DNA of 32,000 nt from a bacterium (GTDB lineage: Bacteria > UBP7 > UBA6624 > JBBIMK01), in contig JBBIMK010000003.1 in NCBI GenBank assembly GCA_037444445.1, forward strand, positions 28,472 to 60,471, in the 5' to 3' direction. The notes below the pieces were generated by a model. That model searched no databases, was not told the origin of the DNA, and saw nothing but the letters and a program-made list of their open reading frames with translations. How positions within the stretch are numbered: the stretch's first letter is position 1; each line of letters begins with the position of its first letter. Position numbers and translations under genes: made by a program. Shown here one piece after another: positions 1 through 30,478 of this stretch.

Positions 1-1407
1 CGATACATCGGTGAAGATGCGGTTTGGGATGCAGATTTTTTCTCGTTTGTGTTCAGCGAAGTAGTAGAGATTATCCAGGAAGAAGAGGGGGTTTCCCTTT
101 GCGGCGGGGAGGAGACGGCTCAAGAAAGCCTGAGCAGAGGCAGGCTCTAAACGGGAAAGCCACGGCGCTCCTATCTGGAGAAGTTCCTCGTCCGTCATCG
201 GCCCCAGCGGATATTTCTGAATAGAGAATCCCCGCAAGAAGAACAGGTCTTCCTGCTCCATCATAGCCAGGATTAAAAGAACCTGGTGATGGTAAGGACC
301 TTCCCGGAAGATGGAGAGAAGTTTTTTAGAATCTGCATCCATATACTGAACATCATCAAATATCACGACGAGAGGCTTATTTTGTCGGAGGGCATCCAGG
401 AAATGGGAGAAAGCCACCAGGAGGGAGGAGCCTTCTTTCTTCATTTCTGACAGGTCCTCCGGCGGCAGGTCCTGGGTAATAAAAAGTTTTTCCAGAATCA
501 TCAAATCCTGAGGCGGGAGGAAGTCTGACAGGCTGTTCCAGAGGGCGTTTAATCCTTCCTCAGGGTCGTCGGATTCCACTCCACAGTAGCGTTCCAGGAG
601 GTCTCGGAAGGCAAAAAAAGATGTCATTTTATGCCGGGGAAGGCAACGGGCAAAGAGGTAGTGCATATTCCTCTGCTGAAGTTTGCGGATGATTTGATAA
701 AGCACTTCAGTTTTGCCAATTCCCGGGTCTCCGGTGAGCAGGAGGGCTCCGCCCACGCCCTCCTGAAGACGCAGGATGTGACCATACAGGGCGGTGAGAA
801 TGTTCTGTCTTCCAACGAAATTTTCCGCCGGCCTGACCTGAAGAGACTTTTTCTTTCCGCTGAGGAGTTGAAATAAGTTCAGGGGTTCTTGCGGAAGAGC
901 CTCCACTTTATGCGGGGGGGAGAATTCGTAGAGTTCATTGAGTTCCCGGGCGAGGGAATCGGACACAGCGATGTGATTCAGGGCTTGATGAGCGAGTTCA
1001 CGAGCCGCATCCAGGGGCTCCCCAGTAAAAATTTGTTGAACCCCATTCCCCAGATTCACTTTCAGGGAGGACACAAAGCCTTCGTGCATTCCGATGTTGG
1101 CAACGAGGTCCTGATGCATCTCCGCATTGTGCCGAAGGATAGCCTGGCGGATGAGGTGGGCAGCCCGCAGAGCCCGTTCCCGAGTATCTTCCAGTGCCTG
1201 AGGAATGCCGAAGAGGGCGTAAAATTGCGAGGTGGTGACCGCATTCACTGTGCCACCGAGGTTGAGCACAATCCGGCTCAACCGTTCAAATAATTTTTGC
1301 TGAGGTTCTGCATACAACTCCGGTGAACGGTGCAATGGCAGGCGGTAGCGAGGACGAATATCCACATATAATACTACCACCAGCTTCTTTTCTGCTGTCT
1401 CTACCAT
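1..1407 (-). CDS. Partial gene (N-terminal 469 codons; continues past left edge): degenerate class III nucleotidyl-cyclase-like domain followed by an AAA_16/STAND-type P-loop ATPase
   Basis: Absent from the supplied ORF track because there is no stop inside the window. Hand translation of the minus strand from ATG 1407-1405 stays open to position 1. It reads MVETAEKKLVVVLYVDIRPRY...QFYALFGIPQALEDTRERALRAAHLIRQ...NIGMHEGFV (cyclase-like), then LLLTGDPGIGKTEVL (Walker A, about 709-732) and KPLVVIFDDVQYMD (Walker B-like). This order matches the common bacterial cyclase-AAA_16-(TPR/LuxR) giant regulators. Confidence 0.75.
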   Translation of the reverse strand, partial: MVETAEKKLVVVLYVDIRPRYRLPLHRSPELYAEPQQKLFERLSRIVLNLGGTVNAVTTSQFYALFGIPQALEDTRERALRAAHLIRQAILRHNAEMHQDLVANIGMHEGFVSSLKVNLGNGVQQIFTGEPLDAARELAHQALNHIAVSDSLARELNELYEFSPPHKVEALPQEPLNLFQLLSGKKKSLQVRPAENFVGRQNILTALYGHILRLQEGVGGALLLTGDPGIGKTEVLYQIIRKLQQRNMHYLFARCLPRHKMTSFFAFRDLLERYCGVESDDPEEGLNALWNSLSDFLPPQDLMILEKLFITQDLPPEDLSEMKKEGSSLLVAFSHFLDALRQNKPLVVIFDDVQYMDADSKKLLSIFREGPYHHQVLLILAMMEQEDLFFLRGFSIQKYPLGPMTDEELLQIGAPWLSRLEPASAQAFLSRLLPAAKGNPLFFLDNLYYFAEHKREKICIPNRIFTDVS

Positions 1408-1425
1408 GTTGAACCCTACTATAAT

Positions 1426-1581: not shown

Positions 1582-3105
1582 CTAATGGCGAAAGTGACGA
1601 ATGCCGGTGAAGAGCATAGTGATGCCATGCTCCCGGGCTGCGGCAATGACTTCCTCGTCCCGGATGGAGCCCCCCGGTTGAACGATGGCTGTCACTCCTG
1701 ATTGAGCGGCTGTATCTACATTATCCCGGAACGGGAAGAATGCATCCGAAGCCAGCACAGCGCCCATCGCATTTTCACCCGCCGTCTTCAGGGCAGATTG
1801 CAGGGAAGCAATTCGGCTGGTTTGCCCGCATCCTACTCCGGACAGAGCCTGATTCTTCACCACTACGATGGCGTTAGATTTCACATGCTTGCAAATTTTC
1901 CACGCAAAAACTATGTCCTCCCATTGTTCCGGTGTGGGTCGCTCGCCGGCGACCCATTTCCAATCCGCCGGGTCCTCTTCTATCGTATCCTCCGTCTGTA
2001 GCAGAATCCCCCCCAGAACGCTCCGAATCTCCAGGGATGGATGCGAAAGTGCGGAAGGCTCAAACTGCAGGATTCGTAGATTTTTCTTCTTCCGTAAAGC
2101 CAGCAGGGCGGATTCAGAAAATTCAGGAGCCAGAACGATTTCAAAAAAGGATTTCGCAATTTCTAAGGCAGTGGGCTCATCCACCGGGCAGTTGAATCCG
2201 ATAATGCCACCGAAGGCAGACGAGGGGTCAGCCTGAAAAGCGCTCTGGAACGCTTCCTGAGGCGTAGGGCGTAACGCGGCCCCGGTCGGATTCGTGTGCT
2301 TGATAATCACACAGAATGCCGGGGGATTGACGGAAAAACTCTGGATAAAACGGAGGCTGGAATCCGCGTCCAGCAAATTGTTGTAAGAAAGTTCTTTCCC
2401 GCCCAGGATGGTGATTCCCGCCAGTGCTCGGGCATTTTCTGCATAAAACGCCCCCCTCTGGTGAGGGTTTTCCCCGTAGCGTAACTCCCATTTTTTTCGG
2501 GCACGAAGAAAAAAAATTTCTGGCATTTTTTCTTCCACCAACCGGGAGAAGTAGGACTGAATAGAAATGTCATAATCGGCAGTTCGGCGGAAGGCTTTCA
2601 GAGCAAGGCAGAGGCGGTCATACAGGTCCAGCCCCCCTGCATGAAGTTTTTCAATAATCACAGGGTAATCTTCCGGGTCCACCACCACGATGACATGGCG
2701 AAAATTCTTTGCCGCCGCACGAATCATAGAGGGTCCACCAATGTCTATATTCTCTATAATTTCAGGGTCCGGAGCGCCCTCCGCCACCTTTTTCTCAAAG
2801 GCATACAGGTTCACTGCCACCAGGTCAAAAAGAGGGATTTGATGCTCTTCCACATCCCGAAGATGGGAAGGGTTATCCCGGTCCGTTAGAATCCCCCCAT
2901 AAATCTTCGTGTGAATGGTTTTGATACGCCCATTTAGAATTCGGGTGAACCCCACAATCGTTTCTGTTGGCACTACGGGAATGCCGTTCTGACCCAGAAG
3001 TGTGGCGGTTCCGCCGGAGGCATAAATCTCCCATCCCATCCCCATCAGTGCTTGAGCAAACTCTACCACGCCTGTTTTATCTGTTACCGAAATCAATGCC
3101 CGCAT
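1582..3105 (-). CDS. purH: Bifunctional AICAR formyltransferase / IMP cyclohydrolase
   Basis: MRALISVTDKTGVVEFAQ...YASGGTATLL...GRIKTIHTKIYGGIL...VAVNLYAFE is typical PurH over the full length. I start it at internal ATG 3105, preceded by AAGGAGGAA, rather than the track's 3231. The 42-aa extension has no PurH counterpart and would overlap the upstream gene. Confidence 0.95.
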   Translation of the reverse strand: MRALISVTDKTGVVEFAQALMGMGWEIYASGGTATLLGQNGIPVVPTETIVGFTRILNGRIKTIHTKIYGGILTDRDNPSHLRDVEEHQIPLFDLVAVNLYAFEKKVAEGAPDPEIIENIDIGGPSMIRAAAKNFRHVIVVVDPEDYPVIIEKLHAGGLDLYDRLCLALKAFRRTADYDISIQSYFSRLVEEKMPEIFFLRARKKWELRYGENPHQRGAFYAENARALAGITILGGKELSYNNLLDADSSLRFIQSFSVNPPAFCVIIKHTNPTGAALRPTPQEAFQSAFQADPSSAFGGIIGFNCPVDEPTALEIAKSFFEIVLAPEFSESALLALRKKKNLRILQFEPSALSHPSLEIRSVLGGILLQTEDTIEEDPADWKWVAGERPTPEQWEDIVFAWKICKHVKSNAIVVVKNQALSGVGCGQTSRIASLQSALKTAGENAMGAVLASDAFFPFRDNVDTAAQSGVTAIVQPGGSIRDEEVIAAAREHGITMLFTGIRHFRH

Positions 3106-3107
3106 AC

Positions 3108-3365
3108 TTATTCCTCCTTTCGGATGTTCATCCGTTTCAACAGAGTCGTCTGGAGTGCTTCTATTATGGTTTGCCTTTGAGCCGGAGTGGAGAAATGCAG
3201 AAAAGAGTCCCTGTGGTTGCACAGAGGACATGTCATCTGGCTGTCTTCACCTTTCCAGAGGATTTTGAAATCCAGATGGCAGCGAGGGCATCGCCGGTTT
3301 ACATAGCCATCCTCATCCACTTTCAGGGGAACCCGCACCTGAACCTTATTCCCATTCATATTCAT
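3108..3365 (-). CDS. Small zinc-ribbon protein (85 aa), family not recognised
   Basis: CPRC-x19-CPLC four-Cys ribbon motif. Its ATG overlaps the stop of the upstream ORF (ATGA at 3362-3365). Its last codons (AAG GAG GAA TAA) form the purH Shine-Dalgarno, and 2 nt separate its stop from the purH ATG. No SD of its own, which is consistent with translational coupling. Confidence 0.6.
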   Translation of the reverse strand: MNMNGNKVQVRVPLKVDEDGYVNRRCPRCHLDFKILWKGEDSQMTCPLCNHRDSFLHFSTPAQRQTIIEALQTTLLKRMNIRKEE

Positions 3366-4222
3366 ACGGCAGAGGATAGTCCGAGTTGCATAGCCTGTTT
3401 AATTTTCCGGGCTAAATCCTGGGGGTCTTTATATTGCAGGATTCCGAAGGGAGCCCAGGCTTTTTCCGCCTGTTTCCCTTCTGCGGCGAAGAGAAAGGTA
3501 TATTTCCCCAGACCATAGGAAATACCTAAAAGGACCAGGAGATAAGGGTCCGGTGTGGAGAGGTCAAAAATCGCCCATCGGGACTCCAGTAGAGAATCTG
3601 TGGCAAGGCAAAAATCGTCCAGTTTTCCCCGGACGGGTTGAAGATGGAGTTGCTCCCGTAGCACCGGCTGATAGATATTAGAATACAGCAGGGCGAAATC
3701 CTCTTCCATGGAACCTGCCACAAACACCTGTTTGGGATAGTAGGTGGGAACATTCGGGCATCCCCGAACTCGCTGAATCGGGCAAAAAATGCTGGTAGAG
3801 GAGTTCACTTCTATGGAAGTTTCACGGATTTGCCTGACCGCTTCGTTGAGCAATTCTCTATCCACCTCAAGGGTGATTTCCCTGCTTTCCATTTCCAGGC
3901 AGGTTTCGTTGCCGGGTTGATAAAGGGGGCATCCAACACAACTATCTAAGGTAATCCGGCGTCGCTTTGCCAGGCACGAAAAATTCAGCACCACTTTCTC
4001 TCCGCTCTTGTAGGCTTTAATCTGAGTGCCGATAGAGAGATGCCTGCAGTCATTTGCTTTCAGAACGGAAGGAACGGAGCAGTTAAAGCACACCATATCA
4101 TCCACTTCGTTCACATAAGGGTCTGTGGAAAGTTCGCAGTAAGCAGACCCCCGGGAAATTTTACGATACGGACAAAACTCTAACGGAAATGTCTCATCCA
4201 GCCGTTCCAGTTTCTCTCTCAT
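3362..4222 (-). CDS. Cys-rich protein (286 aa) with C-terminal nucleoside 2-deoxyribosyltransferase/TIR-like Rossmannoid domain; function unknown
   Basis: The N-terminal ~155 aa carry 11 Cys, including CFNC and CVGC pairs. The C-terminal part reads KQVFVAGSMEEDF...LLESRWAIFDLSTPDPYLLVLLGISYGLGKYTFLF. This follows the strand-AG ... D-loop ... xLGxAxGxGK pattern of NDT/TIR-like domains, by eye only. A good SD (GGGGGTGA) lies 5 nt before ATG 4222. Confidence 0.7.
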   Translation of the reverse strand: MREKLERLDETFPLEFCPYRKISRGSAYCELSTDPYVNEVDDMVCFNCSVPSVLKANDCRHLSIGTQIKAYKSGEKVVLNFSCLAKRRRITLDSCVGCPLYQPGNETCLEMESREITLEVDRELLNEAVRQIRETSIEVNSSTSIFCPIQRVRGCPNVPTYYPKQVFVAGSMEEDFALLYSNIYQPVLREQLHLQPVRGKLDDFCLATDSLLESRWAIFDLSTPDPYLLVLLGISYGLGKYTFLFAAEGKQAEKAWAPFGILQYKDPQDLARKIKQAMQLGLSSAV

Positions 4223-4790
4223 AGTTCACCCCCAGATGAGATAAAATTTCTTCCACCAGCGCATCCCGATTTTTGGGAGTTATCAACCACACTCTTGCAT
4301 CGTTTAGAGATTCTGCCTGCTGGCGAATATGGGCTAACCCTTCCGAGAAAGTTGCCACGAGGGGCTTTGGGCTGTGAAACAGAGAAGGGAGTAAGGCGCG
4401 GAAGCGGGGAGATTGCAGTTCCATTTTTCCAATCTCATCCAGCAAAATTACATCCGCATTCCGAAGGGCATTCGCAAGGCATTCCACACCGATTTTCTCA
4501 AACTCTTCCACACGAACCCGATATTTCCCTACCCGGGGCCCTCCCGGCAGGAGGTCAGCCAGGATTCCCCTTTTTCCATCAAAAGTCTGAATGCGAAACC
4601 CCGTGCGGATTCCGTGTTCCCGGATTTCCGCCGTAAAGAATCCGCCTTTTTGATGAGAGATTTTCTCCGATAAGCGAATCAAGAGGGTCGTTTTTCCGAC
4701 GCCGGGCTTCCCGGTAACAAAACACTTGACGGGTTTCACTTTCCCCTGGTTCTCCATCACCATTGTAACAGGTAAGGCGGGGGAAATCAT
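4194..4790 (-). CDS. THEP1-type nucleoside-triphosphatase (NTPase_1 family P-loop)
   Basis: CFVTGKPGVGKTTLL (Walker A) and ADVILLDEIGKMEL (Walker B), with the small size and layout typical of Aquifex/Methanocaldococcus THEP1-like NTPases. The 3' end overlaps the next ORF by 29 nt. GAGGAGGTG lies upstream of ATG 4790; internal starts at 4763 or 4757 are possible. Confidence 0.8.
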   Translation of the reverse strand: MISPALPVTMVMENQGKVKPVKCFVTGKPGVGKTTLLIRLSEKISHQKGGFFTAEIREHGIRTGFRIQTFDGKRGILADLLPGGPRVGKYRVRVEEFEKIGVECLANALRNADVILLDEIGKMELQSPRFRALLPSLFHSPKPLVATFSEGLAHIRQQAESLNDARVWLITPKNRDALVEEILSHLGVNYERETGTAG

Positions 4791-4821
4791 GAATGTTTTG
4801 GGTCCACCTCCTCGGAGATTC

Positions 4822-5994
4822 TTAGACGAGTTTCAGGAAGCGGCGCTTGCCAACCTTGAGGATGGCAGGTTCGCCGGGCTTTACTACCTGCTCCAGGTTA
4901 TCAATGCGGTGGGCGTTCAGAGAAACGCCGCCGGCGCGTATCAGCCGCTTTGCCTCTCCACGGCTCTTCGTCAATCCCGCTTCCACCATCACTTCAATCA
5001 AAAGCCGGGGCTCGGACAGGGTGTATTCCATCATCTCTTCGGGCGCCTCTTTCTCCACGAACAGGCGGAGAAAGTGCTCTCGCGCCGCTCGGGCTTTCTC
5101 CTTCCCGTGTACCTGCTGGGTTATCAGCCCGGCTAATTGATGCTTCACATCCCGGGGGTTGATTGTTTCTTCTTCGCAGGCCCGTCGCATGTCTGCAATC
5201 TCTTTCTCGGGCACATCCGTCAGGAGGAAGAAGTATTTCCACATAACCTCATCCGGCAGGGACATAATTTTTCCGAACATATCTTCGGGAGAATCCTGGA
5301 GAGCAATCACATTTCCCTCCGATTTACTCATTTTCTTCACTCCATCCGTGCCCTCTAAAAGAGGCAGAGTGAAAACTATCTGAGGCTCCTGTCCGTAGGC
5401 TCTCTGTAAATCCCTGCCCACGAGGAGATTGAACAACTGGTCCGCACCGCCGATTTCCACATCTGCGTGAATGGCAACGGAATCGTAAGCCTGGAAGAGG
5501 GGGTAGAGAATCTCGTGGATGCTGAGTGGATTGCCCTGACGGAAGCGTTGATGGAAGTCATCCCGCTGAAGCATCTGGGCAACGGTGAACCGGGAAGCGA
5601 TCCGGAGAAGGTCTTCAAAGGTCAGGCTCGCCAGCCACTGACTGTTTCGGGCGAACCGGGTTTGCTCCGGGATGAGGTAGGGAAGGGCTTGCTCCTGGTA
5701 GGTGCGGGCGTTTTCCTCTATCTCTTTTTCTGAAAGGGGAGGACGGGTGGATGAACGACCGCTGGGGTCCCCTATTCGCCCCGTATAATCCCCAATAATA
5801 AAAATTACCTCCCCACCCAACTCCTGGAATGCTCGCATCTTCCGAAATAGCACCAGATGCCCCAGGTGTAACTCAGGAGAAGTGGGGTCAACTCCTAATT
5901 TGATTCTCAATGCCCTTTTTGAGGTGAGCCGTTCTTTGAGTTCTTCAGGTGTTATTACCTGAAAAACTCCTCGTAGCAATTGCTCCATCATCAT
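4822..5994 (-). CDS. tyrS: Tyrosine--tRNA ligase
   Basis: HIGH motif (ELHLGHLV), KMSKS motif and C-terminal S4-like domain (SRGEAKRLIRAGGVSLN). There are three consecutive ATGs; the SD (AGAGGA) abuts the first, so the true start may be 5988 or 5991. Confidence 0.95.
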   Translation of the reverse strand: MMMEQLLRGVFQVITPEELKERLTSKRALRIKLGVDPTSPELHLGHLVLFRKMRAFQELGGEVIFIIGDYTGRIGDPSGRSSTRPPLSEKEIEENARTYQEQALPYLIPEQTRFARNSQWLASLTFEDLLRIASRFTVAQMLQRDDFHQRFRQGNPLSIHEILYPLFQAYDSVAIHADVEIGGADQLFNLLVGRDLQRAYGQEPQIVFTLPLLEGTDGVKKMSKSEGNVIALQDSPEDMFGKIMSLPDEVMWKYFFLLTDVPEKEIADMRRACEEETINPRDVKHQLAGLITQQVHGKEKARAAREHFLRLFVEKEAPEEMMEYTLSEPRLLIEVMVEAGLTKSRGEAKRLIRAGGVSLNAHRIDNLEQVVKPGEPAILKVGKRRFLKLV

Positions 5995-6480: not shown

Positions 6481-6924
6481 ATGTTAAACCGTGTTTTTTT
6501 AATCGGGCGAGTGGGGCGGGACCCAGAACTGCGTTATGCCGCATCCAGTGGTCGCCCGGTCGTGACTTTTTCACTGGCAACCGACCGGTTTACTCGCTCT
6601 GAGTCCGGTGAGAAGAATCGCCATACCGATTGGCATCGCATCGTGGTCTGGGGCGATAGAGCCCAGTGGTGCACTGAAAATTTATCCAGGGGGAAACTTA
6701 TCCTCGTGGAAGGGAGGCTCCAAACCCGTAAGTGGCAAGATAGAAACGGGATGACGAAAACCACGGTGGAAGTGGTGGCAGACCGGATTCAATTCGTGGG
6801 CCCGAAGGAAGTGACCCCTCTGGAAACTTCCTTAGAAACCCCTCAGGAAATGAACCTCCAGGATATTTCCTCTATCCCCACCGTGCCGGAGGAGGATGAA
6901 AACCTTGAAGAGGAGGGAACATAA
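6481..6924 (+). CDS. ssb: Single-stranded DNA-binding protein
   Basis: MLNRVFLIGRVGRDPELRY...TDWHRIVVWG...LILVEGRLQTRKWQD is a canonical OB-fold SSB. GAGGAGGG precedes the ATG. The acidic C-terminus ends ...EEDENLEEEGT. Confidence 0.9.
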   Translation: MLNRVFLIGRVGRDPELRYAASSGRPVVTFSLATDRFTRSESGEKNRHTDWHRIVVWGDRAQWCTENLSRGKLILVEGRLQTRKWQDRNGMTKTTVEVVADRIQFVGPKEVTPLETSLETPQEMNLQDISSIPTVPEEDENLEEEGT

Positions 6925-8191
6925 TCGCTTTACCGTTATAACTCTGGGCTGTGAGAAAAACCTGGTGGATTCTGAGATACTCATCGGGAATCTTACTGCC
7001 CGAGGCTGGCATTTCGTGCGAAGTCCTCAATACGCCGACAGGGTGTTCGTTCAGACCTGTGCCTTTATTCAGGAAGCGCGACAGGATTCCATAGAAACGG
7101 TATCCCGGGTGCTGGAATTAAAGCGAGAAAACCCGGAATTAAAGGTGTATGTGACCGGGTGCCTGGTCAAGCATCCTTCTCAATCCTGGCGTTACTCTTT
7201 CAACGGCGAGGTGGATGGCTTTTATACCACACCGGCAGAAATTCTTAAGGATTTCACTTCTTCCTCTTCTGTTCTCCTGTGCAGAAAATCCCTGGTGCCA
7301 TCCTGGTATGCCTACCTAAAACTTTCGGAGGGGTGTAGTCGCCCCTGCTCTTTTTGCGTGATTCCCCAATTGCGTGGAACTCATCGGAGTAAACCCTTTG
7401 AGGTTTTACGGGAAGAGGCTGAACAGTTACTACGGCGAGGAGTGCAGGAGGTGATTTTGATTGCACAGGATACGACCTTATATGGAAAAGATTTGCCGGA
7501 TGCCTCAGTGCGTTTATCGGATGTTCTCCGTTTGATGTCTGGTTTAGGCTTTCGGTGGATTCGCCCGTTTTATTTGCACCCTGCAGGCGTAGCGGAAGAG
7601 TTGCTGGAGGCTTTTCACTTGCCGGGTGTGTTGCCTTATTTTGACCTGCCGTTTCAACACGCCAGCCCCCGTATTCTTTCCGCTATGCGTCGGGAAGGCT
7701 CCATACAAAACTACGAGGCACTGGTGGAGCGCATCCGAAATGATTTTCCCCGCTCCTACATACGAACTTCCCTGATTGTAGGTTTTCCCGGGGAAACAGA
7801 GGAGGATTTTGAGGAGGTTTTGTCTTTTGTGAAACGATGGAAGTTTGATGGGCTCTCGGCTTTCGCCTACTCGGCGGAAGAAGGGACGAAGGCGTCCTCG
7901 CTTCCTCACCCGGTTCCTTCTGAAGAAATAGAAAATCGTTTAGCGGAACTCACCCGGGTTCAGAATGAGATAGGGAGAGAAAGGCTGTGCGGGTGGATAG
8001 GGCAGAGTGCGGAGGCTGTGGTGGAAAAAATACGGAGTGTTGCGGTGGGACGAACCTGGTTTCAGGCGCCCGATGTGGATGGCGCCACCATCCTGAATAC
8101 CCGGTCAAAGCCCGGTGACTTCATCTCTGTGAATATCACTGATGCGGTGGAATATGACCTCTATGCGGAGGAGGTGAATCCACCATCGTGA
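6896..8191 (+). CDS. rimO: Ribosomal protein S12 methylthiotransferase (radical SAM MTTase)
   Basis: N-terminal TLGCEKNLVDSE, radical-SAM CSRPCSFC, IAQDTTLYGKD and a C-terminal TRAM-like segment, with RimO-like length. The start overlaps the ssb 3' end by 29 nt. Confidence 0.88.
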   Translation: MKTLKRREHNRFTVITLGCEKNLVDSEILIGNLTARGWHFVRSPQYADRVFVQTCAFIQEARQDSIETVSRVLELKRENPELKVYVTGCLVKHPSQSWRYSFNGEVDGFYTTPAEILKDFTSSSSVLLCRKSLVPSWYAYLKLSEGCSRPCSFCVIPQLRGTHRSKPFEVLREEAEQLLRRGVQEVILIAQDTTLYGKDLPDASVRLSDVLRLMSGLGFRWIRPFYLHPAGVAEELLEAFHLPGVLPYFDLPFQHASPRILSAMRREGSIQNYEALVERIRNDFPRSYIRTSLIVGFPGETEEDFEEVLSFVKRWKFDGLSAFAYSAEEGTKASSLPHPVPSEEIENRLAELTRVQNEIGRERLCGWIGQSAEAVVEKIRSVAVGRTWFQAPDVDGATILNTRSKPGDFISVNITDAVEYDLYAEEVNPPS

Positions 8192-15041: not shown

Positions 15042-15827
15042 ATGCGAGAGAAATGGGCGTATCATCTGGCGCTATCCAAAAAGGAGATAGAAGGCGCCAC
15101 CCTGGCATTATTACCCGGTGACCCGGCCCGGGTTCCTAAACTGGCTCAAAGTCTGGATAAAAAGGCGAAAGAAATTGCCTGGAACCGAGAATTTAGAACC
15201 TGTCTGGGAAGGGTGAAGGGCGAAGCCTTAGTCATCACTTCCACCGGCATTGGCGGCCCTTCTACCGCCATCGCTGTAGAGGAACTGGCTATGCTGGGAG
15301 TGAGAACCTTCATCCGCGTGGGTACCTGTGGAGGTATTCAGCCTTATATGAAAATCGGGGATGTGGTTATCACCACCGGCGCAGTCCGCCTGGAGGGTTC
15401 CTCCACTCACTACGCACCGTTGGAATATCCGGCGGTTGCCGATTTTGAAGTAACCAGCGCATTGATAGAAGGAGCGAAAAAAGCAAAAGTTCGCTACCAT
15501 ATCGGAATCACTTGCTCCTCGGACACTTTCTATCCCGGCCAGGAAAGAAATGATTCTTTCTCCGGCTATGTTCCGAAAAGGTTTCAAGGCATTACGGATG
15601 AGTGGAAACGGCTCGGCGTTTTGAATTATGAGATGGAAGCCGCTACATTGCTGACGGTTTGCTCTGCACTCAGGCTACGCGCCGGGTGCATCACGGGAGT
15701 TGTGGATGTCCGCAATATATCACAACATATTACCCTGAAAGCGCTGGAGAAAGCGGAAAAAAATGTGGTTTCTGTGGCTATAATAGGTGCGAAAGTTTTC
15801 CTGAATAAAATCCTGAGGAAATTTTGA
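15042..15827 (+). CDS. udp: Uridine phosphorylase
   Basis: Colinear with E. coli Udp from memory: ATLALLPGDPARV, STGIGGPSTAIAVEEL, RVGTCGGI, EYPAVADFE, SSDTFYPGQER and LNYEMEAATLL. Confidence 0.9.
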   Translation: MREKWAYHLALSKKEIEGATLALLPGDPARVPKLAQSLDKKAKEIAWNREFRTCLGRVKGEALVITSTGIGGPSTAIAVEELAMLGVRTFIRVGTCGGIQPYMKIGDVVITTGAVRLEGSSTHYAPLEYPAVADFEVTSALIEGAKKAKVRYHIGITCSSDTFYPGQERNDSFSGYVPKRFQGITDEWKRLGVLNYEMEAATLLTVCSALRLRAGCITGVVDVRNISQHITLKALEKAEKNVVSVAIIGAKVFLNKILRKF

Positions 15828-17109: not shown

Positions 17110-17337
17110 GTGATAGAACAGAGGAAGTTCGTGAGGGTTCGGAAGGGGAAAATAATTCTGGGATTGTGTGGAGGGCTGGCGAAATACTGGGGTCAAGACC
17201 CCGCATTGGTTCGCTTCTTCTGGCTTGCTTTTACCCTTCTTCTCACGGGTTATAGCCCGGGTATGGGGTTCTTGTGGGTTCTTTTCTATTTTCTTTCCCC
17301 TCTTTTTATTCCATCAGCAGATGAAAGTGCTTCATAA
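17110..17337 (+). CDS. PspC-domain membrane protein
   Basis: GKIILGLCGGLAKYWGQDPALVRFFWL followed by a TM segment is the PspC domain signature. TATAAT at 17098-17103 and GAGGAAG before an in-frame GTG at 17131 suggest the real start may be 17131. Confidence 0.7.
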   Translation: MIEQRKFVRVRKGKIILGLCGGLAKYWGQDPALVRFFWLAFTLLLTGYSPGMGFLWVLFYFLSPLFIPSADESAS

Positions 17338-18409
17338 GATTTTGCAAACGGTGTGGTCGTTCTGGGCTATATTCAGACGGCAAAGCCATCGGATTGAGTG
17401 TTTCACAAAAAAAATTGGACACTTCTGGATTCGGAGATATACCCTTATCTGGACTGCCTGGATATTTTTCCTGTGGCACTCCTCTGCGTGGGGATATAAT
17501 TTTTACTTTCCCCCTTATACATATTTATCCACAAAGAACGCTGGCACAGGCGGAGTTTTCTCACCCCTGACAGGGAATCCGGAAGTGATTTTTGAGAATC
17601 CTGCTTCCATTGCCTGCGTCAGGCGACGGTTCTCCTATTCTCACAGTATGAGGCATTTTCCCGGGAAGATAAGGAATTTAGACCAGTTGGATGCAGATTC
17701 CGTGGCTCTTGTGTCTCATTTTACATTTCTCTCTTTGGGGCTGGGATTTACGGTAGCAGGTGAGTTAGGCTATGACTATCTCGTCCGGAATGATGTGGTT
17801 TTTCCTGAGGAGAAGATAGAAGGAAGAGAAGAGGTGCGAGCCCTCTCTATGGGTGGTTGCTGGCTGGCTTCTGGAAGGAGCGAACGCCATTTTCATTATC
17901 GCATCCGCAAGCCCAATTATTCCATAAAAGAAACGGATGGAATTACATCCACTGTGGGGAAAGTTTTTCACCCCCTGCCCTGGCTTTCATTTTCCCGAAG
18001 TGCGGAAAGAGGAATCGGAAACCCCCTGAAATTTTTTTCTGTGAAGGCTTCAACACGCCCGGATGGAGGAGTGAGCACACCTGGCTTGCAAACAAGACAA
18101 CGCCAGAACTGGTCCATTAAACTTTTTCCCTGGTGGCTCTGGAGCAGTGCCAGAGAGAGGAGAGACTATGTTCTATCTGGATTCCCCATCCAATCAATGG
18201 AAGAGGTATTCCTCGGTTCAGAAATAAAAATTTTCGGTATCACTCTGAGAGTGGGCAAATGGAATGGTCATCCCACGACTGGCTTTTCTCTCCCCTGGGG
18301 GTGGGGGTCCCTGGATTACGCCGAGGTGAAAGATGTGCTATCGGACATCACGGACACTCCTTTGCCCTATTTCCGGGATGTCCACATGGGGGGTTTTACT
18401 CTAAGATAA
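17321..18409 (+). CDS. Hypothetical envelope protein, possibly an outer-membrane beta-barrel
   Basis: I start it at ATG 17321, overlapping the pspC-domain gene by 17 nt; the track's 17168 start runs through that gene. It has a hydrophobic N-terminal segment ending SSAWG. NAGTGGVFSPLTGNPEVIFENPASIA resembles the N-terminal motif of PorV/FadL-like barrels (weak, by eye). Confidence 0.5.
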   Translation: MKVLHKILQTVWSFWAIFRRQSHRIECFTKKIGHFWIRRYTLIWTAWIFFLWHSSAWGYNFYFPPYTYLSTKNAGTGGVFSPLTGNPEVIFENPASIACVRRRFSYSHSMRHFPGKIRNLDQLDADSVALVSHFTFLSLGLGFTVAGELGYDYLVRNDVVFPEEKIEGREEVRALSMGGCWLASGRSERHFHYRIRKPNYSIKETDGITSTVGKVFHPLPWLSFSRSAERGIGNPLKFFSVKASTRPDGGVSTPGLQTRQRQNWSIKLFPWWLWSSARERRDYVLSGFPIQSMEEVFLGSEIKIFGITLRVGKWNGHPTTGFSLPWGWGSLDYAEVKDVLSDITDTPLPYFRDVHMGGFTLR

Positions 18410-18445
18410 ACAATTTTGACCCCGAGGTGCGAAGGAGGAAAGAGT

Positions 18446-20083
18446 ATGCTCCAGTATGAAACCTGGGAAAAAGAGGTGTTAGAACCTTTTATAAGACGCT
18501 TTCCAGAGCGAAAGAAAGAATTTCTCACTCCATCAAAGGTCCCGGTTAAAACGGTTTATTGTTCCAGAGATTTGAGCCCATTTGAGGAAGAACGGGACCT
18601 GTCCTTTCCAGGCTCTTATCCTTTCACTCGGGGAATTTATCCCACTTTATATCGGGGTCGGCTCTGGACTATGCGCCAGTATGCGGGATTTGGAACGGCG
18701 GATGAAACCAACCAGCGCTATCGGAAATTACTCAAAAAGGGGCAAACCGGGCTCTCTGTGGCTTTTGATTTACCCACTCAGATGGGGCTGGATTCCAATG
18801 ACCCGATGGCTCGTGGTGAAGTCGGCAGAACGGGTGTGGCTATCTCTTCTGTGGAAGATATGGAGCGCCTGTTCCGGGATATTCCCCTGAATAAAGTGAG
18901 CGTTTCTATGACCATCAACGCTACTGCATCCATTCTCTGGTGTATGTACCTGTATTTAGCAGAGCAGCGAGGGATTTCCTGGAAATCCTTACAGGGCACT
19001 ATCCAGAACGATATTCTGAAGGAATATATTGCTCGTGGGACTTACATTTATCCCCCGGAGCCTTCTCTTTCGCTGGTGGTGGATGCCATAGAGTTCGGGC
19101 TTCGTTATGTTCCTGCGTGGCATCCCATATCCATTAGTGGATATCATATACGGGAAGCAGGTGCCACGGCGGTTCAGGAAATGGCATTCACGCTGGGGAA
19201 TGCGATTGCCTATGTGGAAGGGGCGAGAAAGCGAGGGCTGGCGATAGATGCCTTCGCTCCACGAATATCCTTCTTTTTCGCTTCCCATAACTATGTTTTG
19301 GAGGAGGTTGCGAAATTCCGCGCTCTCCGACGGATGTGGGCAGGATTGATGAAAGAGCGATTCGGTGCCGGCGACCCAGAATCTATGAAACTGAGGTTCC
19401 ATGTTCAAACCGCCGGCTCCACACTCACACTTCAACAACCTTTGAACAATATCGTTCGGGTTACACTCCAGGCGCTTGCCGCTGTTCTCGGTGGTGCCCA
19501 GTCCCTTCACACGAATGCTTATGATGAAGCCATCGCCCTTCCCACAGAAGCCTCCGCTACCATTGCCCTCCGGACCCAGCAAATCCTTGCCTGCGAAGCG
19601 GGAATCGGGGACACGGTGGACCCCCTCGGCGGGTCGTATTTCCTGGAATCCCTCACCCGCACACTGGAAGAAAAAGCCCAACAATACCTCCTCAAAATTC
19701 AACAAAAGGGGGGAATGCTGGAAGCCATCAAATCTGGCTTCATACAGCAAGAAATCGCTAACAGCGCCTACGAGCGACAACGAAAAATAGAACAGGGCAG
19801 TGAAATTCTTGTAGGTGTGAACGCATTTCAGGAGAAGAGGAAGGTCAAAATCCCTCACTTGAAAATACGCCCGGAGGTGGAGGAAAAACAGACTCGCCGC
19901 TTGAAAGCCTTCATCCGAAATCGTGAATCCCGGGCGTTAATCGGTGCTCTGCGCAGTTTGAAAAAAAGTGCGCGGGAGAGAGTGAATTTACTGCCTGCCA
20001 TCTATTCTGCGGTGAAGGCCCACGCCACCGTGGGGGAAATTTCCTCCGTCTTACGAGAGGTCTATGGCTCTTATCGTCCATAA
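18446..20083 (+). CDS. Methylmalonyl-CoA/acyl-CoA mutase large (catalytic TIM-barrel) subunit, no B12-binding domain
   Basis: FPGSYPFTRGIYPTLYRGRLWTMRQYAGFGTADETNQRY, GLSVAFDLPTQMGLDSD and NDILKEYIARGTYIYPP are canonical MCM N-terminal domain sequences. ATG 18446 is preceded by GAAGGAGGAA, so I prefer it to the track's TTG at 18416. Confidence 0.92.
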   Translation: MLQYETWEKEVLEPFIRRFPERKKEFLTPSKVPVKTVYCSRDLSPFEEERDLSFPGSYPFTRGIYPTLYRGRLWTMRQYAGFGTADETNQRYRKLLKKGQTGLSVAFDLPTQMGLDSNDPMARGEVGRTGVAISSVEDMERLFRDIPLNKVSVSMTINATASILWCMYLYLAEQRGISWKSLQGTIQNDILKEYIARGTYIYPPEPSLSLVVDAIEFGLRYVPAWHPISISGYHIREAGATAVQEMAFTLGNAIAYVEGARKRGLAIDAFAPRISFFFASHNYVLEEVAKFRALRRMWAGLMKERFGAGDPESMKLRFHVQTAGSTLTLQQPLNNIVRVTLQALAAVLGGAQSLHTNAYDEAIALPTEASATIALRTQQILACEAGIGDTVDPLGGSYFLESLTRTLEEKAQQYLLKIQQKGGMLEAIKSGFIQQEIANSAYERQRKIEQGSEILVGVNAFQEKRKVKIPHLKIRPEVEEKQTRRLKAFIRNRESRALIGALRSLKKSARERVNLLPAIYSAVKAHATVGEISSVLREVYGSYRP

Positions 20084-28135: not shown

Positions 28136-30478
28136 ATGAATTCAGTTCGGCTGGATATTCAAGAAGGTGCAATAAAACTTCAGATTGAGGGATTATTGCC
28201 GGCTGACCTGGAGGGTGTGCTCAAGAAAGCCTTGACCCGGGGAGAAATTCCAGAGGACCAGTTTTTCACTCTTTACCGCCTGTTTAAAAACCGTGAAATC
28301 CGAATGGTTCTTACGCCTGCATTCCAGGAGCATCTGGAAGCATTAAAAAAGCGATATGGTGTTCATATCTGCTTGAAAAAGGAAGCAGGGAAAAAGAAAC
28401 TTGGGGTAGAGATGGCTCCAGACCTCTCGCCCAACATTCAGAAAATTCTCCACCGGGAGATCACCCCCTGGGGAACCTTGAAGAAGATTTCTCGCATCGG
28501 GAATTTACTAAAGAAGTTAGAGGAACGAGGGGCGTATCTTACGCTCACGCCAGAAGCCAGGAATTATATGGACTATTATCGGCGAAGGAATACGGTTTGT
28601 TTCGTTTTCCAGGATGGGGGAATCGGTGTGAAGGAACCAGCGGTTCTTTTCCCCAAACTTTACTCTCTCCTCCAACCCTTTCTAAAAGATGGGTATCTGG
28701 AGGACCCTTTAATGTTTCCTCGTCTCGTGAAACGGTTGAAGGAAAGAGGAAAAGAAGGATGGGTGGAAGTGGACCCTATGGCTGGGCGGGTGTATACTGT
28801 TTTTGCTCGCAACCATTGCTCTATTTTACCCTCGCCGGATTTCTACCAGCACATTGAGGTTGTTTTTGATGAAAAATATCTGCAGGATTCTTTCAAGAAA
28901 ATTCTCGCTCCCTTTGTGGATGTCTATCACCTGCTGAAGGATTATCGGGAAGTGGAGCCGCTGGTAGAGAAGTTGAGGTCGGCAGGATGCTCGGTGAAAC
29001 TTTATCCAGAAACCTATGAGGTGGTGAGGCTCCAGGCGAGGATTGCTGGCGCTGATATGCCAGATTTCTTAAAATATCCGCTCTACGAGTATGAGAAAAA
29101 GGGGAGTGTTTTCCTGGCGGTGCAGGGAAATGCTCTGCTGGCAGATGAGATGGGATTAGGAAAGACGGCGCAAGCCATTGCAGCTTTCCTCCTCCTGAAA
29201 TCTGAGGGCAAGGTTAAAAATGCTCTTGTGATTGTTCCGGCTTCCTTAAAACTTCAGTGGGCACGAGAAATTGAGAAATTTACTGATGAACCCTATGTGG
29301 TCATCTTCGGTGCGAAAGAGCAAAGAATCCAACAATATAACCGAGCGCCAGTTTCTTTTTATATTCTCAATTACGAGCTTCTTCTCCGGGATTTTGAAGA
29401 AATCCGGAGGTTGAATGCGGACCTGATCATCCTGGATGAGGCACAGCGGATTAAAAATTATCAAACCAAAACCCATCAACTCATCCGCCTCCTTCAGCGA
29501 AAATACGCCTTTGCGCTCACGGGCACACCCCTGGAAAATCATCTGATGGAACTCTACACGGTGATGCGTTTCTTAAACCCCTCTGTCCTGGGTGGGAATG
29601 TGCAAACCTTTATGAGGCGGTATTGCATTAAAAACCACTTCGGCGCCATCATCGGTTACCGGCGTATGGAGGAGGTCCGAAAGAAGGTGAGTGCCATTAT
29701 TCTTCGGCGAACCAAGCAGGAAGTCCTTTCGGAATTGCCTGAACGAGTTGAAAACATTTACAGTGTGCCACTCACGCCAGTTCAAGAAAAAATGTACCGG
29801 CAATATCGCCAACCCTTGCTGGAACTTTTGAAGAAGAAAGAAGAGTGGAGAGAGAGAGACCTTCACGAGGCGTTCGGGCAAATGACCTATCTACTGGAAA
29901 TCTGCGATTCCGCTGAACTGGTGGATGAGCAGGAAAAGGCTTCCTCTAAACTGGAGGAGTTGAAGCCCATTCTGGAAGAAATTTTATCCAGTGAGCATAA
30001 AATTTTGCTTTTCTCCCAGTGGGAGCGAATGACCGCCATTCTCCAGCGAGAGATAGAAAAAATGGATGTGAAAACTGTTCGCTTCTATGGCGACTTGAGT
30101 CCGAAAGAACGGCAGGAAACGATAGATGCGTTCACGAATCAGCAGGACATCCGCGTTTTTATTTCCACGGATGCCGGTGCCCTCGGCGTCAATCTACAGG
30201 CGGCGGATTTTGTGATAAATTTTGACCTGCCCTGGAATCCAGCCAAACTGGAACAGCGTATTGCACGAGCCCATCGTATCGGACAGAAAAGAACTGTCAA
30301 TGTGGTCAACCTCATCACTATCCGAACCCTTGAATCCGGTATTTTGAAAGTGCTGTACAAAAAGCGCCGCCTTTTCAAAGAAATTTTTGATTACCTGGAA
30401 ACGGAAAGGATGCTTTCCTCTGCCCCTGCTGCCCGTCAGATGATTGCCCAGATTCTAAAAGGAGAATCCGGGGATTAA
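28136..30478 (+). CDS. SNF2-family helicase/translocase with an unassigned ~330-aa repeat-containing N-terminal region
   Basis: LADEMGLGKT (motif I, about 29141-29167), LIILDEAQRIKN (motif II, about 29435), LTGTPLEN, a Helicase_C region and RAHRIGQKR (motif VI, about 30272). GAAGAAGG SD. Confidence 0.92.
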   Translation: MNSVRLDIQEGAIKLQIEGLLPADLEGVLKKALTRGEIPEDQFFTLYRLFKNREIRMVLTPAFQEHLEALKKRYGVHICLKKEAGKKKLGVEMAPDLSPNIQKILHREITPWGTLKKISRIGNLLKKLEERGAYLTLTPEARNYMDYYRRRNTVCFVFQDGGIGVKEPAVLFPKLYSLLQPFLKDGYLEDPLMFPRLVKRLKERGKEGWVEVDPMAGRVYTVFARNHCSILPSPDFYQHIEVVFDEKYLQDSFKKILAPFVDVYHLLKDYREVEPLVEKLRSAGCSVKLYPETYEVVRLQARIAGADMPDFLKYPLYEYEKKGSVFLAVQGNALLADEMGLGKTAQAIAAFLLLKSEGKVKNALVIVPASLKLQWAREIEKFTDEPYVVIFGAKEQRIQQYNRAPVSFYILNYELLLRDFEEIRRLNADLIILDEAQRIKNYQTKTHQLIRLLQRKYAFALTGTPLENHLMELYTVMRFLNPSVLGGNVQTFMRRYCIKNHFGAIIGYRRMEEVRKKVSAIILRRTKQEVLSELPERVENIYSVPLTPVQEKMYRQYRQPLLELLKKKEEWRERDLHEAFGQMTYLLEICDSAELVDEQEKASSKLEELKPILEEILSSEHKILLFSQWERMTAILQREIEKMDVKTVRFYGDLSPKERQETIDAFTNQQDIRVFISTDAGALGVNLQAADFVINFDLPWNPAKLEQRIARAHRIGQKRTVNVVNLITIRTLESGILKVLYKKRRLFKEIFDYLETERMLSSAPAARQMIAQILKGESGD

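Follow-up and report, generated by a model that had tools for sequence, protein, structure and literature searches.

X and ZnR are two adjacent minus-strand genes of the window, the 32,000-nucleotide (nt) stretch of contig JBBIMK010000003.1 analyzed here (positions 28,472 to 60,471 of its forward strand); they are the third and fourth of five co-directional genes, which follow one another in the order tyrS, a THEP1-type NTPase, X, ZnR, and purH. X is a cysteine-rich protein of a very rare family that has no Pfam or NCBIfam model, and ZnR is a small zinc-ribbon protein. Comparison with related loci shows that the conserved core of the cluster is the two-gene cassette X-ZnR, not a trio that includes the NTPase. 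The favored explanation, to which a probability of roughly 0.45 is given, is that X-ZnR is a coupled, metal-rich, non-enzymatic two-protein module built on a disabled nucleoside 2-deoxyribosyltransferase (NDT)/TIR fold, plausibly regulatory or accessory to purH.

The 36 loci gathered were scored by tblastn, a ZnR hidden Markov model, and an identity matrix (the loci around P0003 and P0004, both of clade III, are not included); the X proteins fall into three clades. Clade III comprises the window, L002 (97% identical), and L001 (57% identical), each with the order X-ZnR-purH; upstream of the pair, tyrS and the NTPase are present in the window and L002 alone, and L001 has a bPH_2 gene. Clade II proteins are 25-30% identical to the window X, and in this clade X and ZnR are invariably adjacent. 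ZnR orthologues lie directly 3' of X in L001-L004 and L017-L035, which is every clade II or III locus with room for one; the spacing between the X stop and the ZnR start varies between an overlap of 4 nt and a gap of 3 nt, with L004 as the one exception. Within clade II, purH follows the pair in subclade IIa (L003, L004, L017-L020, and L023; FlhB-like genes upstream), in subclade IIb (L021; hemB after purH), and in subclade IIc (L022, L024, and L032; a gene for an ACT-malic enzyme upstream and gcvT convergent). The remaining subclade, IId (L025-L035), has nuoN-like and Wzy_C (O-antigen-ligase-like) genes before X-ZnR, and either nuoA/nuoB/nuoCD (L030) or a secreted protein of 615-630 amino acids (aa) after it; the secreted protein has no Pfam match (regions concerned: L030 1318-9211 and L028 1062-7834). 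Clade I, at 21-27% identity to the window X, is the clade with the largest number of members (P0008, P0053-P0074).

The block X-ZnR-purH is seen in five lineages (window/L002; L001; L003/L004/L017-L020/L023; L021; and L022/L024/L032), and the X proteins of the purH-linked groups share merely 25-30% identity. The genes around the block vary by lineage, upstream (tyrS-NTPase, bPH_2, FlhB-like, or ACT-malic enzyme) as well as downstream (STAND, EF-hand, SLH, fmt, gcvT, or hemB); the purH genes are 58% (L001) and ~40% (clade II) identical to that of the window, and each lies directly 3' of X-ZnR. X-ZnR, kept in clades II and III, is hence the conserved unit, and the NTPase is specific to one lineage. 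The original prediction had named a trio of NTPase, X, and ZnR, which is not supported as a conserved unit, and had asked whether these genes are syntenic or scattered in relatives, to which the answer is divided: the NTPase is scattered, X-ZnR is syntenic, and purH is half so.

An exhaustive HMMER scan with X against 1.84e9 representative proteins gave 51 matches at E<=1e-3, of which 7 reach E<=1e-10, and an alignment-seeded word-index search of 5.8 billion clusters gave 27 members of the X family. The matches are of two classes, covering either residues ~11-103 alone (stand-alone proteins of 105-136 aa) or residues ~147-280. At E<=1, X itself matches no family of Pfam or NCBIfam, and it has neither a relevant PADLOC match nor a PHROGs match; the other family members scanned have no Pfam match except for one that is irrelevant (E 0.09). 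The architecture of X is shown to be a new ~95-aa domain with eight cysteines (8-Cys), a linker helix, and a Rossmannoid domain homologous to NDT and TIR proteins; the protein is under purifying selection, with a ratio of nonsynonymous to synonymous substitution (dN/dS) of 0.08 against L002, and its 11-12 invariant cysteines are maintained across ~22% pairwise identity. An AlphaFold2 (AF2) model of X from three sequences had a predicted local distance difference test (pLDDT) score of 44.6 and was not usable; a second model, from 26 sequences, resolved the C-terminal domain alone.

The C-terminal domain of X is supported as a homolog of the NDT/TIR-like superfamily by profile comparison and by its predicted fold. 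In the 26-sequence model residues 160-285 (pLDDT ~85) are predicted to form a beta-alpha-beta sandwich; Foldseek returns DNPH1/Rcl and BcmB as the best target-normalized template modeling scores (0.72 and 0.70, respectively), followed by NDTs and a plant TIR, with REC and flavodoxin folds among the matches as generic neighbors and E-values of only ~2e-3. In a viral library, the named matches are a CMP hydrolase and NDT-like proteins. Alignment of the X family with its distant relatives by hhalign gives a probability of 99.6% (E 3e-24 over 145 columns); these relatives, which match X over residues 147-280, contain PF10137 (CAP12/Pycsar TIR) in 20 of 38 cases and PF05014 (nucleoside 2-deoxyribosyltransferase) in 17 of 38, and carry N-terminal modules such as STAND/AAA_35, PAS, GAF, REC, HEAT, Mrr_cat, and others. 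Against the PDB the profile of the relatives finds BcmB, the NDT of T. brucei (TbNDT), Rcl/DNPH1, Cap12, and PycTIR; the profile of the X family finds solely NDT and CMP-hydrolase chains, weakly (E 0.03-2). The earlier reading of X as a Cys-rich region joined to an NDT/TIR-like Rossmannoid domain is thus upheld by the hhalign homology, the Foldseek neighbors, and the invariant cysteines.

A glutamate in an x-E-h-G motif after beta-4 is the nucleophile in NDT and DNPH1 and the catalytic glutamate of TIR NADases. The glutamate of the 'FELG' motif in the relatives aligns with those of YELG (Rcl), FEVG (NDT), IEIG (BcmB), and FEFG (Cap12) in PDB alignments; this position is occupied by Leu231 in the window X and by Leu, Ala, or Phe throughout the 26 family sequences examined. 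The domain is NDT/TIR-like but CATALYTICALLY degenerate, and with the glutamate so replaced, the X family is not a functional member of this enzyme class, at least by the known mechanism. X is probably a binder or scaffold instead of an enzyme, as judged from these replacements; the nucleotide 'processing' that had been suggested for the locus is unlikely, since the catalytic residue of the superfamily is absent in every member checked. An aspartate at the end of beta-4 contacts the sugar in the NDT/TIR superfamily; the position is D220 in clades I and III and Asn, Ser, or Leu in clade II. Outside of cysteine, the invariant residues of the C-terminal domain are Gly233, Gly239, Tyr264, and a few hydrophobic residues.

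Compared with the NDT superfamily (PF05014, which includes NDT, DNPH1/Rcl, and the CMP N-glycosidases BcmB/MilB/BlsM), the C-terminal domain of X has the same flavodoxin-like Rossmannoid fold and the common motif region 'D-h-S...h-h-x-h-G-h-A-x-G-h-G-K'; it differs in having no direct Pfam match, no glutamate nucleophile, and no conserved phosphate-binding loop after beta-1. Known enzymes of this superfamily are stand-alone proteins of ~150 aa, whereas X adds a Cys3-4 site and the large 8-Cys N-terminal domain. The cysteines of the C-terminal domain are C147, C155, and C205; a fourth completes a CxxC in clades I and II but has been lost from the window clade, where Thr208 is found instead. These cysteines are common to the active relatives ('CFKxGxxxCP...CKIC'). 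The nearest active relatives are the 'CFKxGxxxCP...NPNVxFELG..GLGK' family, which has C-x7-C...CxxC cysteines as X does and connects X with the TIR-like effectors of CBASS and Pycsar (PF10137, CAP12-PCTIR_TIR; 7UN8 for Cap12 and 8JSJ for PycTIR) through the PF10137 matches counted above; unlike these effectors, X has no catalytic glutamate, cyclic-nucleotide sensor, STAND partner, defense context, or PADLOC match. Many clade I proteins (P0008, P0057, P0061, P0064, P0070) bear low-complexity C-terminal tails of 30-60 aa that end rich in Lys and Arg, which might serve nucleic-acid binding in that clade; X of the window clade does not have such tails.

The N-terminal domain of X contains eight invariant cysteines (C17, C29, C45, C48, C59, C83, C95, and C98) in all of its fused and stand-alone versions, and one arginine and two glycines are likewise invariant. 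It makes up whole proteins of 105-136 aa and, in one case, the N-terminal part of a protein of 256 aa (P0010, P0013, P0017, P0033, P0018); no Pfam model matches it, and it looks like an undescribed mobile domain. The pLDDT of the N-terminal domain is <50, at which fold and metal geometry are not readable; the cysteine pattern indicates that the domain probably forms two Cys4 metal sites. For X as a whole the sequence suggests up to three Cys4 sites, most simply occupied by zinc, because the CxxC pairs are combined with distant single cysteines and neither ferredoxin nor radical-SAM spacing is seen. The sole PDB signal of the N-terminal domain is a marginal match to eL42 (E 0.036-0.3; the best ~0.04), which is probably due to chance; it covers positions 25-61 of the A7 profile (residues ~34-70 of the window X) and the segment 'CxxC...C[KR]H[FL][ED]LG' of this eukaryotic and archaeal ribosomal protein.

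ZnR is, by its sequence, probably a generic zinc ribbon of the MJ0042 type. Its two CxxC knuckles, which are separated by 15-17 residues, are invariant in five orthologues and are followed by a conserved helix; the pattern is that of the MJ0042-type ribbons PF13717 and PF13719, although the window copy is under every Pfam cut-off, with generic zinc-ribbon matches of which the best has E 0.0067. The L024 orthologue is the sole ZnR to pass PF13717 (37.1 bits against 30.3). The original designation of the 85-aa protein as a zinc ribbon is supported. An alignment search with ZnR gave nine proteins, and all of those with an examined context belong to clade II or III. Five of five ZnR proteins tested (window 3108-3365; L001 1476-1703; L002 10858-11115; L003 8906-9157; L004 5960-6211) also match positions 3-81, the N-terminal region, of the PADLOC model PDC-M14A (E 1.8e-6 to 1e-3), and they include pairs that BLASTP cannot relate. 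This similarity may be that of generic ribbons or may be real kinship. PDC systems are untested 'guilt-by-embedding' defense candidates (bioRxiv 10.1101/2024.01.29.577857), and the literature search gave no paper on PDC-M14 itself; PDC-M14A, a model of 152 positions, belongs to a multi-gene candidate that is itself untested, and the locus contains no other component of it.

In the favored explanation X and ZnR would be made in fixed proportion through translational coupling and would act together as a metal-containing, non-enzymatic complex that has as many as four Cys4 sites. The disabled pocket of the NDT fold would be a binding or scaffold module, perhaps for a partner protein or for a ligand resembling a nucleotide. 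The pair would have been co-expressed with purH in the common ancestor of clades II and III, with a role regulatory or accessory to the final steps of de novo purine synthesis, e.g. sensing 5-aminoimidazole-4-carboxamide ribonucleotide (ZMP) and inosine monophosphate (IMP), or the redox or metal state, and influencing PurH itself or its expression; in other branches the tie to purH would have been lost. A regulatory or accessory purine role is considered most likely because X-ZnR-purH is kept in five lineages despite their differing flanks. Complex formation, the identity of the metal, ligand binding, and action on PurH are all predictions from sequence. A bolder version, in which X-ZnR is an undescribed accessory or regulatory complex for terminal purine synthesis whose dead NDT pocket senses ZMP, FAICAR (the formyl form of ZMP), or IMP and whose Cys4 sites sense redox or metal state, so modulating the activity, stability, or expression of PurH, with the 8-Cys module as a new sensor domain that also stands alone, is regarded as improbable.

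Several observations weigh against a purine-related module of this kind. In subclade IId ZnR is kept and purH does not follow; clade I members have neither ZnR nor purH nearby and are found beside mutL, YdjM, pgsA/aminotransferase, secDF, and DUF72 genes, from which it follows that X has a function that needs neither. The proposed link to purH is partial: it exists in five lineages with differing flanks and is absent in IId and in clade I. No pur gene other than purH adjoins the pair. The loop after beta-1 binds phosphate in DNPH1, and in X this loop differs clade by clade; besides cysteine, glycine, and one tyrosine, no pocket residue is kept across clades, and the idea of a common nucleotide ligand is weakened by both of these findings. 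The metal sites are assigned from the sequence pattern alone because the model of the N-terminal domain is unreliable, and the coupling of X to ZnR is read from gene spacing only. Rfam scans of the window and of 15 related loci gave no family at its gathering score, ZTP, purine, and T-box riboswitches included. The X-ZnR-purH order could also be an ancestral arrangement that merely persisted.

The strongest alternative develops this last point: the gene order would be a historical accident and X a lineage-specific housekeeping metal or redox protein (Zn or Fe-S) unrelated to purines, with ZnR as a small partner in some branches and purH downstream by ancestry. Such an account is considered less likely; clade I members living alone in varied housekeeping contexts, the loss of purH adjacency in IId, and the absence of a purine-related riboswitch all fit it, as do the universally conserved residues of X, which are nearly all Cys and Gly, and the loose spacing of 40-144 nt between ZnR and purH outside of the window. 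It is less easily reconciled with the survival of X-ZnR-purH in five lineages as both flanks change and X falls to 25-30% identity; chance retention over such divergence is possible, however it is less likely than selection for co-expression.

The NTPase of the supposed trio is a bona fide full-length member of the PF03266/THEP1 family by sequence. The 198-aa NTPase matches Pfam PF03266 with E 1.7e-44 and 152 bits (cut-off 23.9) over profile positions 2-168 of 168, passes the NCBIfam equivalog PRK13695 with 169.5 bits (cut-off 156), and finds the PDB entries 1YE8 (Aquifex THEP1; E 7e-28) and 2I3B (human HCR-NTPase; E 3e-18). Its translation contains a Walker A motif, GKPGVGKT, and a Walker B motif, ILLDEIG; the matches and motifs agree with the family named in the original prediction. 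Two papers on this family (PMC1079890, PMC2700126) describe ATPase/GTPase activity in vitro and state that the in vivo function is unknown. As a full-length protein with both Walker motifs the window NTPase resembles THEP1 and HCR-NTPase, and nothing sets it apart from them except for a lineage-specific placement between tyrS and X. Among the gathered loci it adjoins X only in the window and the 97%-identical L002; it is not beside X in L001 nor in any of the 30 or more other loci, and is best seen as a lineage-specific passenger in the operon, not a conserved component of the module.

The original prediction had combined NTPase, X, and ZnR into one system of three components that would sense or process purine nucleotides, a reading that is now very unlikely. 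The 29-nt overlap between the NTPase and X genes is in keeping with it, as is the frequent fusion of distant active relatives of the X C-terminal domain to P-loop STAND/AAA_35 NTPases; however, synteny largely refutes a system of which the NTPase is a part, and X does not have the catalytic glutamate that processing would call for. An NTPase_1 match in the fused relative P0029 (E 0.0087) was considered as an NTPase-NDT link and rejected, as it is a weak echo of the generic P-loop inside an AAA_35 domain.

A role in defense was assessed by searches of plasmids, phages, and defense models. Homologs of X are found by tblastn in none of 72,556 plasmids and none of 50,697 phages; in PADLOC-DB there is no relevant match for X, the NTPase gives P-loop echoes alone, and ZnR solely matches the N-terminus of PDC-M14A. 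No mobile-element gene is present in the window, where the neighboring genes are housekeeping genes, and the guanine-cytosine content is flat across the region at 0.49-0.55 with no anomaly. These results, with the missing PHROGs match, confirm that the locus is free of mobile-element hallmarks, as had been noted before, and of defense hallmarks. The least likely of the explanations gives the locus an anti-phage or conflict role, as a still active or decayed system with a TIR/NDT-type effector that was domesticated in the chromosome: the conflict and signaling architectures of the closest active C-domain relatives (STAND, PAS, REC, HEAT, Mrr_cat, and PF10137-matching fusions) and the PDC-M14A match of every ZnR tested are outweighed by these negative searches, by the family-wide loss of the catalytic glutamate, and by stable housekeeping contexts under purifying selection, and the PDC match itself concerns untested candidates and may reflect a generic zinc ribbon.

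The five genes of the cluster span 1582-5994 on the minus strand (Table 1; coordinates are positions in the window). The packing of the NTPase, X, and ZnR genes with no free intergenic DNA is confirmed exactly, and so are the junctions that had been described: the 29-nt overlap of NTPase and X (4194-4222), the ATGA overlap of X and ZnR (3362-3365), the ZnR stop TAA (3110-3108) followed by 2 nt and the purH ATG, and the purH Shine-Dalgarno sequence within ZnR. Between the tyrS stop and the NTPase ATG lies a gap of 31 nt that contains GAGGAGG. The NTPase, X, and ZnR open reading frames (ORFs) are real genes, because the NTPase passes its family cut-offs, orthologues of X and ZnR that begin at the equivalent position occur in many metagenomic loci, and selection is evident in the dN/dS values against L002, namely 0.25 (NTPase) and 0.42 (ZnR, from few sites) in addition to that of X.

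Table 1. Features of the tyrS-purH cluster, with positions in the window.
Feature	Position	Strand	Remarks
tyrS (tyrosyl-tRNA synthetase)	4822-5994	minus	opens the cluster; 98.7% identical to the L002 copy
THEP1/NTPase_1-type P-loop NTPase	4194-4790	minus	198 aa
X, Cys-rich protein of an unannotated rare family	3362-4222	minus	286 aa
X N-terminal 8-Cys domain	3920-4183	minus	residues ~14-101
X C-terminal NDT/TIR-like Rossmannoid (flavodoxin-like) domain	3371-3790	minus	residues ~145-284
ZnR, zinc-ribbon protein	3108-3365	minus	85 aa; C26xxC29 ... C46xxC49, then a C-terminal helix
purH Shine-Dalgarno AAGGAGG	3119-3113	minus	within the final ZnR codons; read from the sequence
purH (bifunctional AICAR transformylase / IMP cyclohydrolase)	1582-3105	minus	507 aa; ATG 3105-3103; closes the cluster

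Consensus scans of the cluster reveal no convincing internal promoter or terminator; terminator-like matches inside coding sequence are weak, and region-wide 17 are found where shuffling leads to an expected 10.3 (standard deviation 3.7). Tight packing and 4-nt overlaps are commonplace in bacterial operons, and the packing of this cluster is genuine but ordinary operon architecture. The genes ssb (6481-6924, plus strand) and a radical-SAM MiaB/RimO-like gene (6896-8191, plus strand) also overlap by 29 nt, equal to the NTPase/X junction, which indicates that long overlaps are common in the source genome. At the two ends of the cluster the assignments are supported by orthologues, as tyrS of L002 contains the Pfam domains tRNA-synt_1b, SYY_C-terminal, and S4, and the purH orthologues contain MGS and AICARFT_IMPCHas. 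The purH stop is followed by a 157-nt gap with a promoter-like site (TTGACA-17-TACTAT, 1454-1426) and then by a separate gene; positions 1-1425 (minus strand) encode the first 475 residues of its product, an AAA_16+TPR (STAND/MalT-like) protein of 1138 aa that is 92% identical to the L002 orthologue.

Outside the cluster, the window is ordinary chromosome and includes ssb, the radical-SAM MiaB/RimO-like gene, cinA, ligT, recA, recX, RNase Y, methylmalonyl-CoA mutase, aconitase, and others. Directly upstream of the methylmalonyl-CoA mutase gene (18416-20083), at a distance of 6 nt, lies an ORF of 413 aa (17168-18409, plus strand) that no Pfam model matches. Two further plus-strand genes are not linked to the finding, namely a PNP_UDP_1 phosphorylase (purine-nucleoside/MTA phosphorylase-like; 15042-15827), which is 10 kb from the cluster, and a 780-aa SNF2-family helicase (28136-30478).

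The superfamily of the X C-terminal domain is known; what is undescribed in Pfam, NCBIfam, PADLOC, and the literature searched is the combination of glutamate loss, an 8-Cys domain, a dedicated zinc-ribbon partner, and linkage to purH. At present X-ZnR is a well-delimited uncharacterized family and not a demonstrated new system; should the inference hold, X would define a new 8-cysteine domain outside all Pfam models. If the favored explanation is true, an NDT/TIR-fold domain without catalysis has been recruited to a stable chromosomal role of the housekeeping type, unlike its active relatives of the conflict and signaling type, and uncultured lineages (metagenome-assembled genomes labeled Planctomycetia or unclassified), whose loci carry no known riboswitch, may control the final steps of purine synthesis by a protein sensor.

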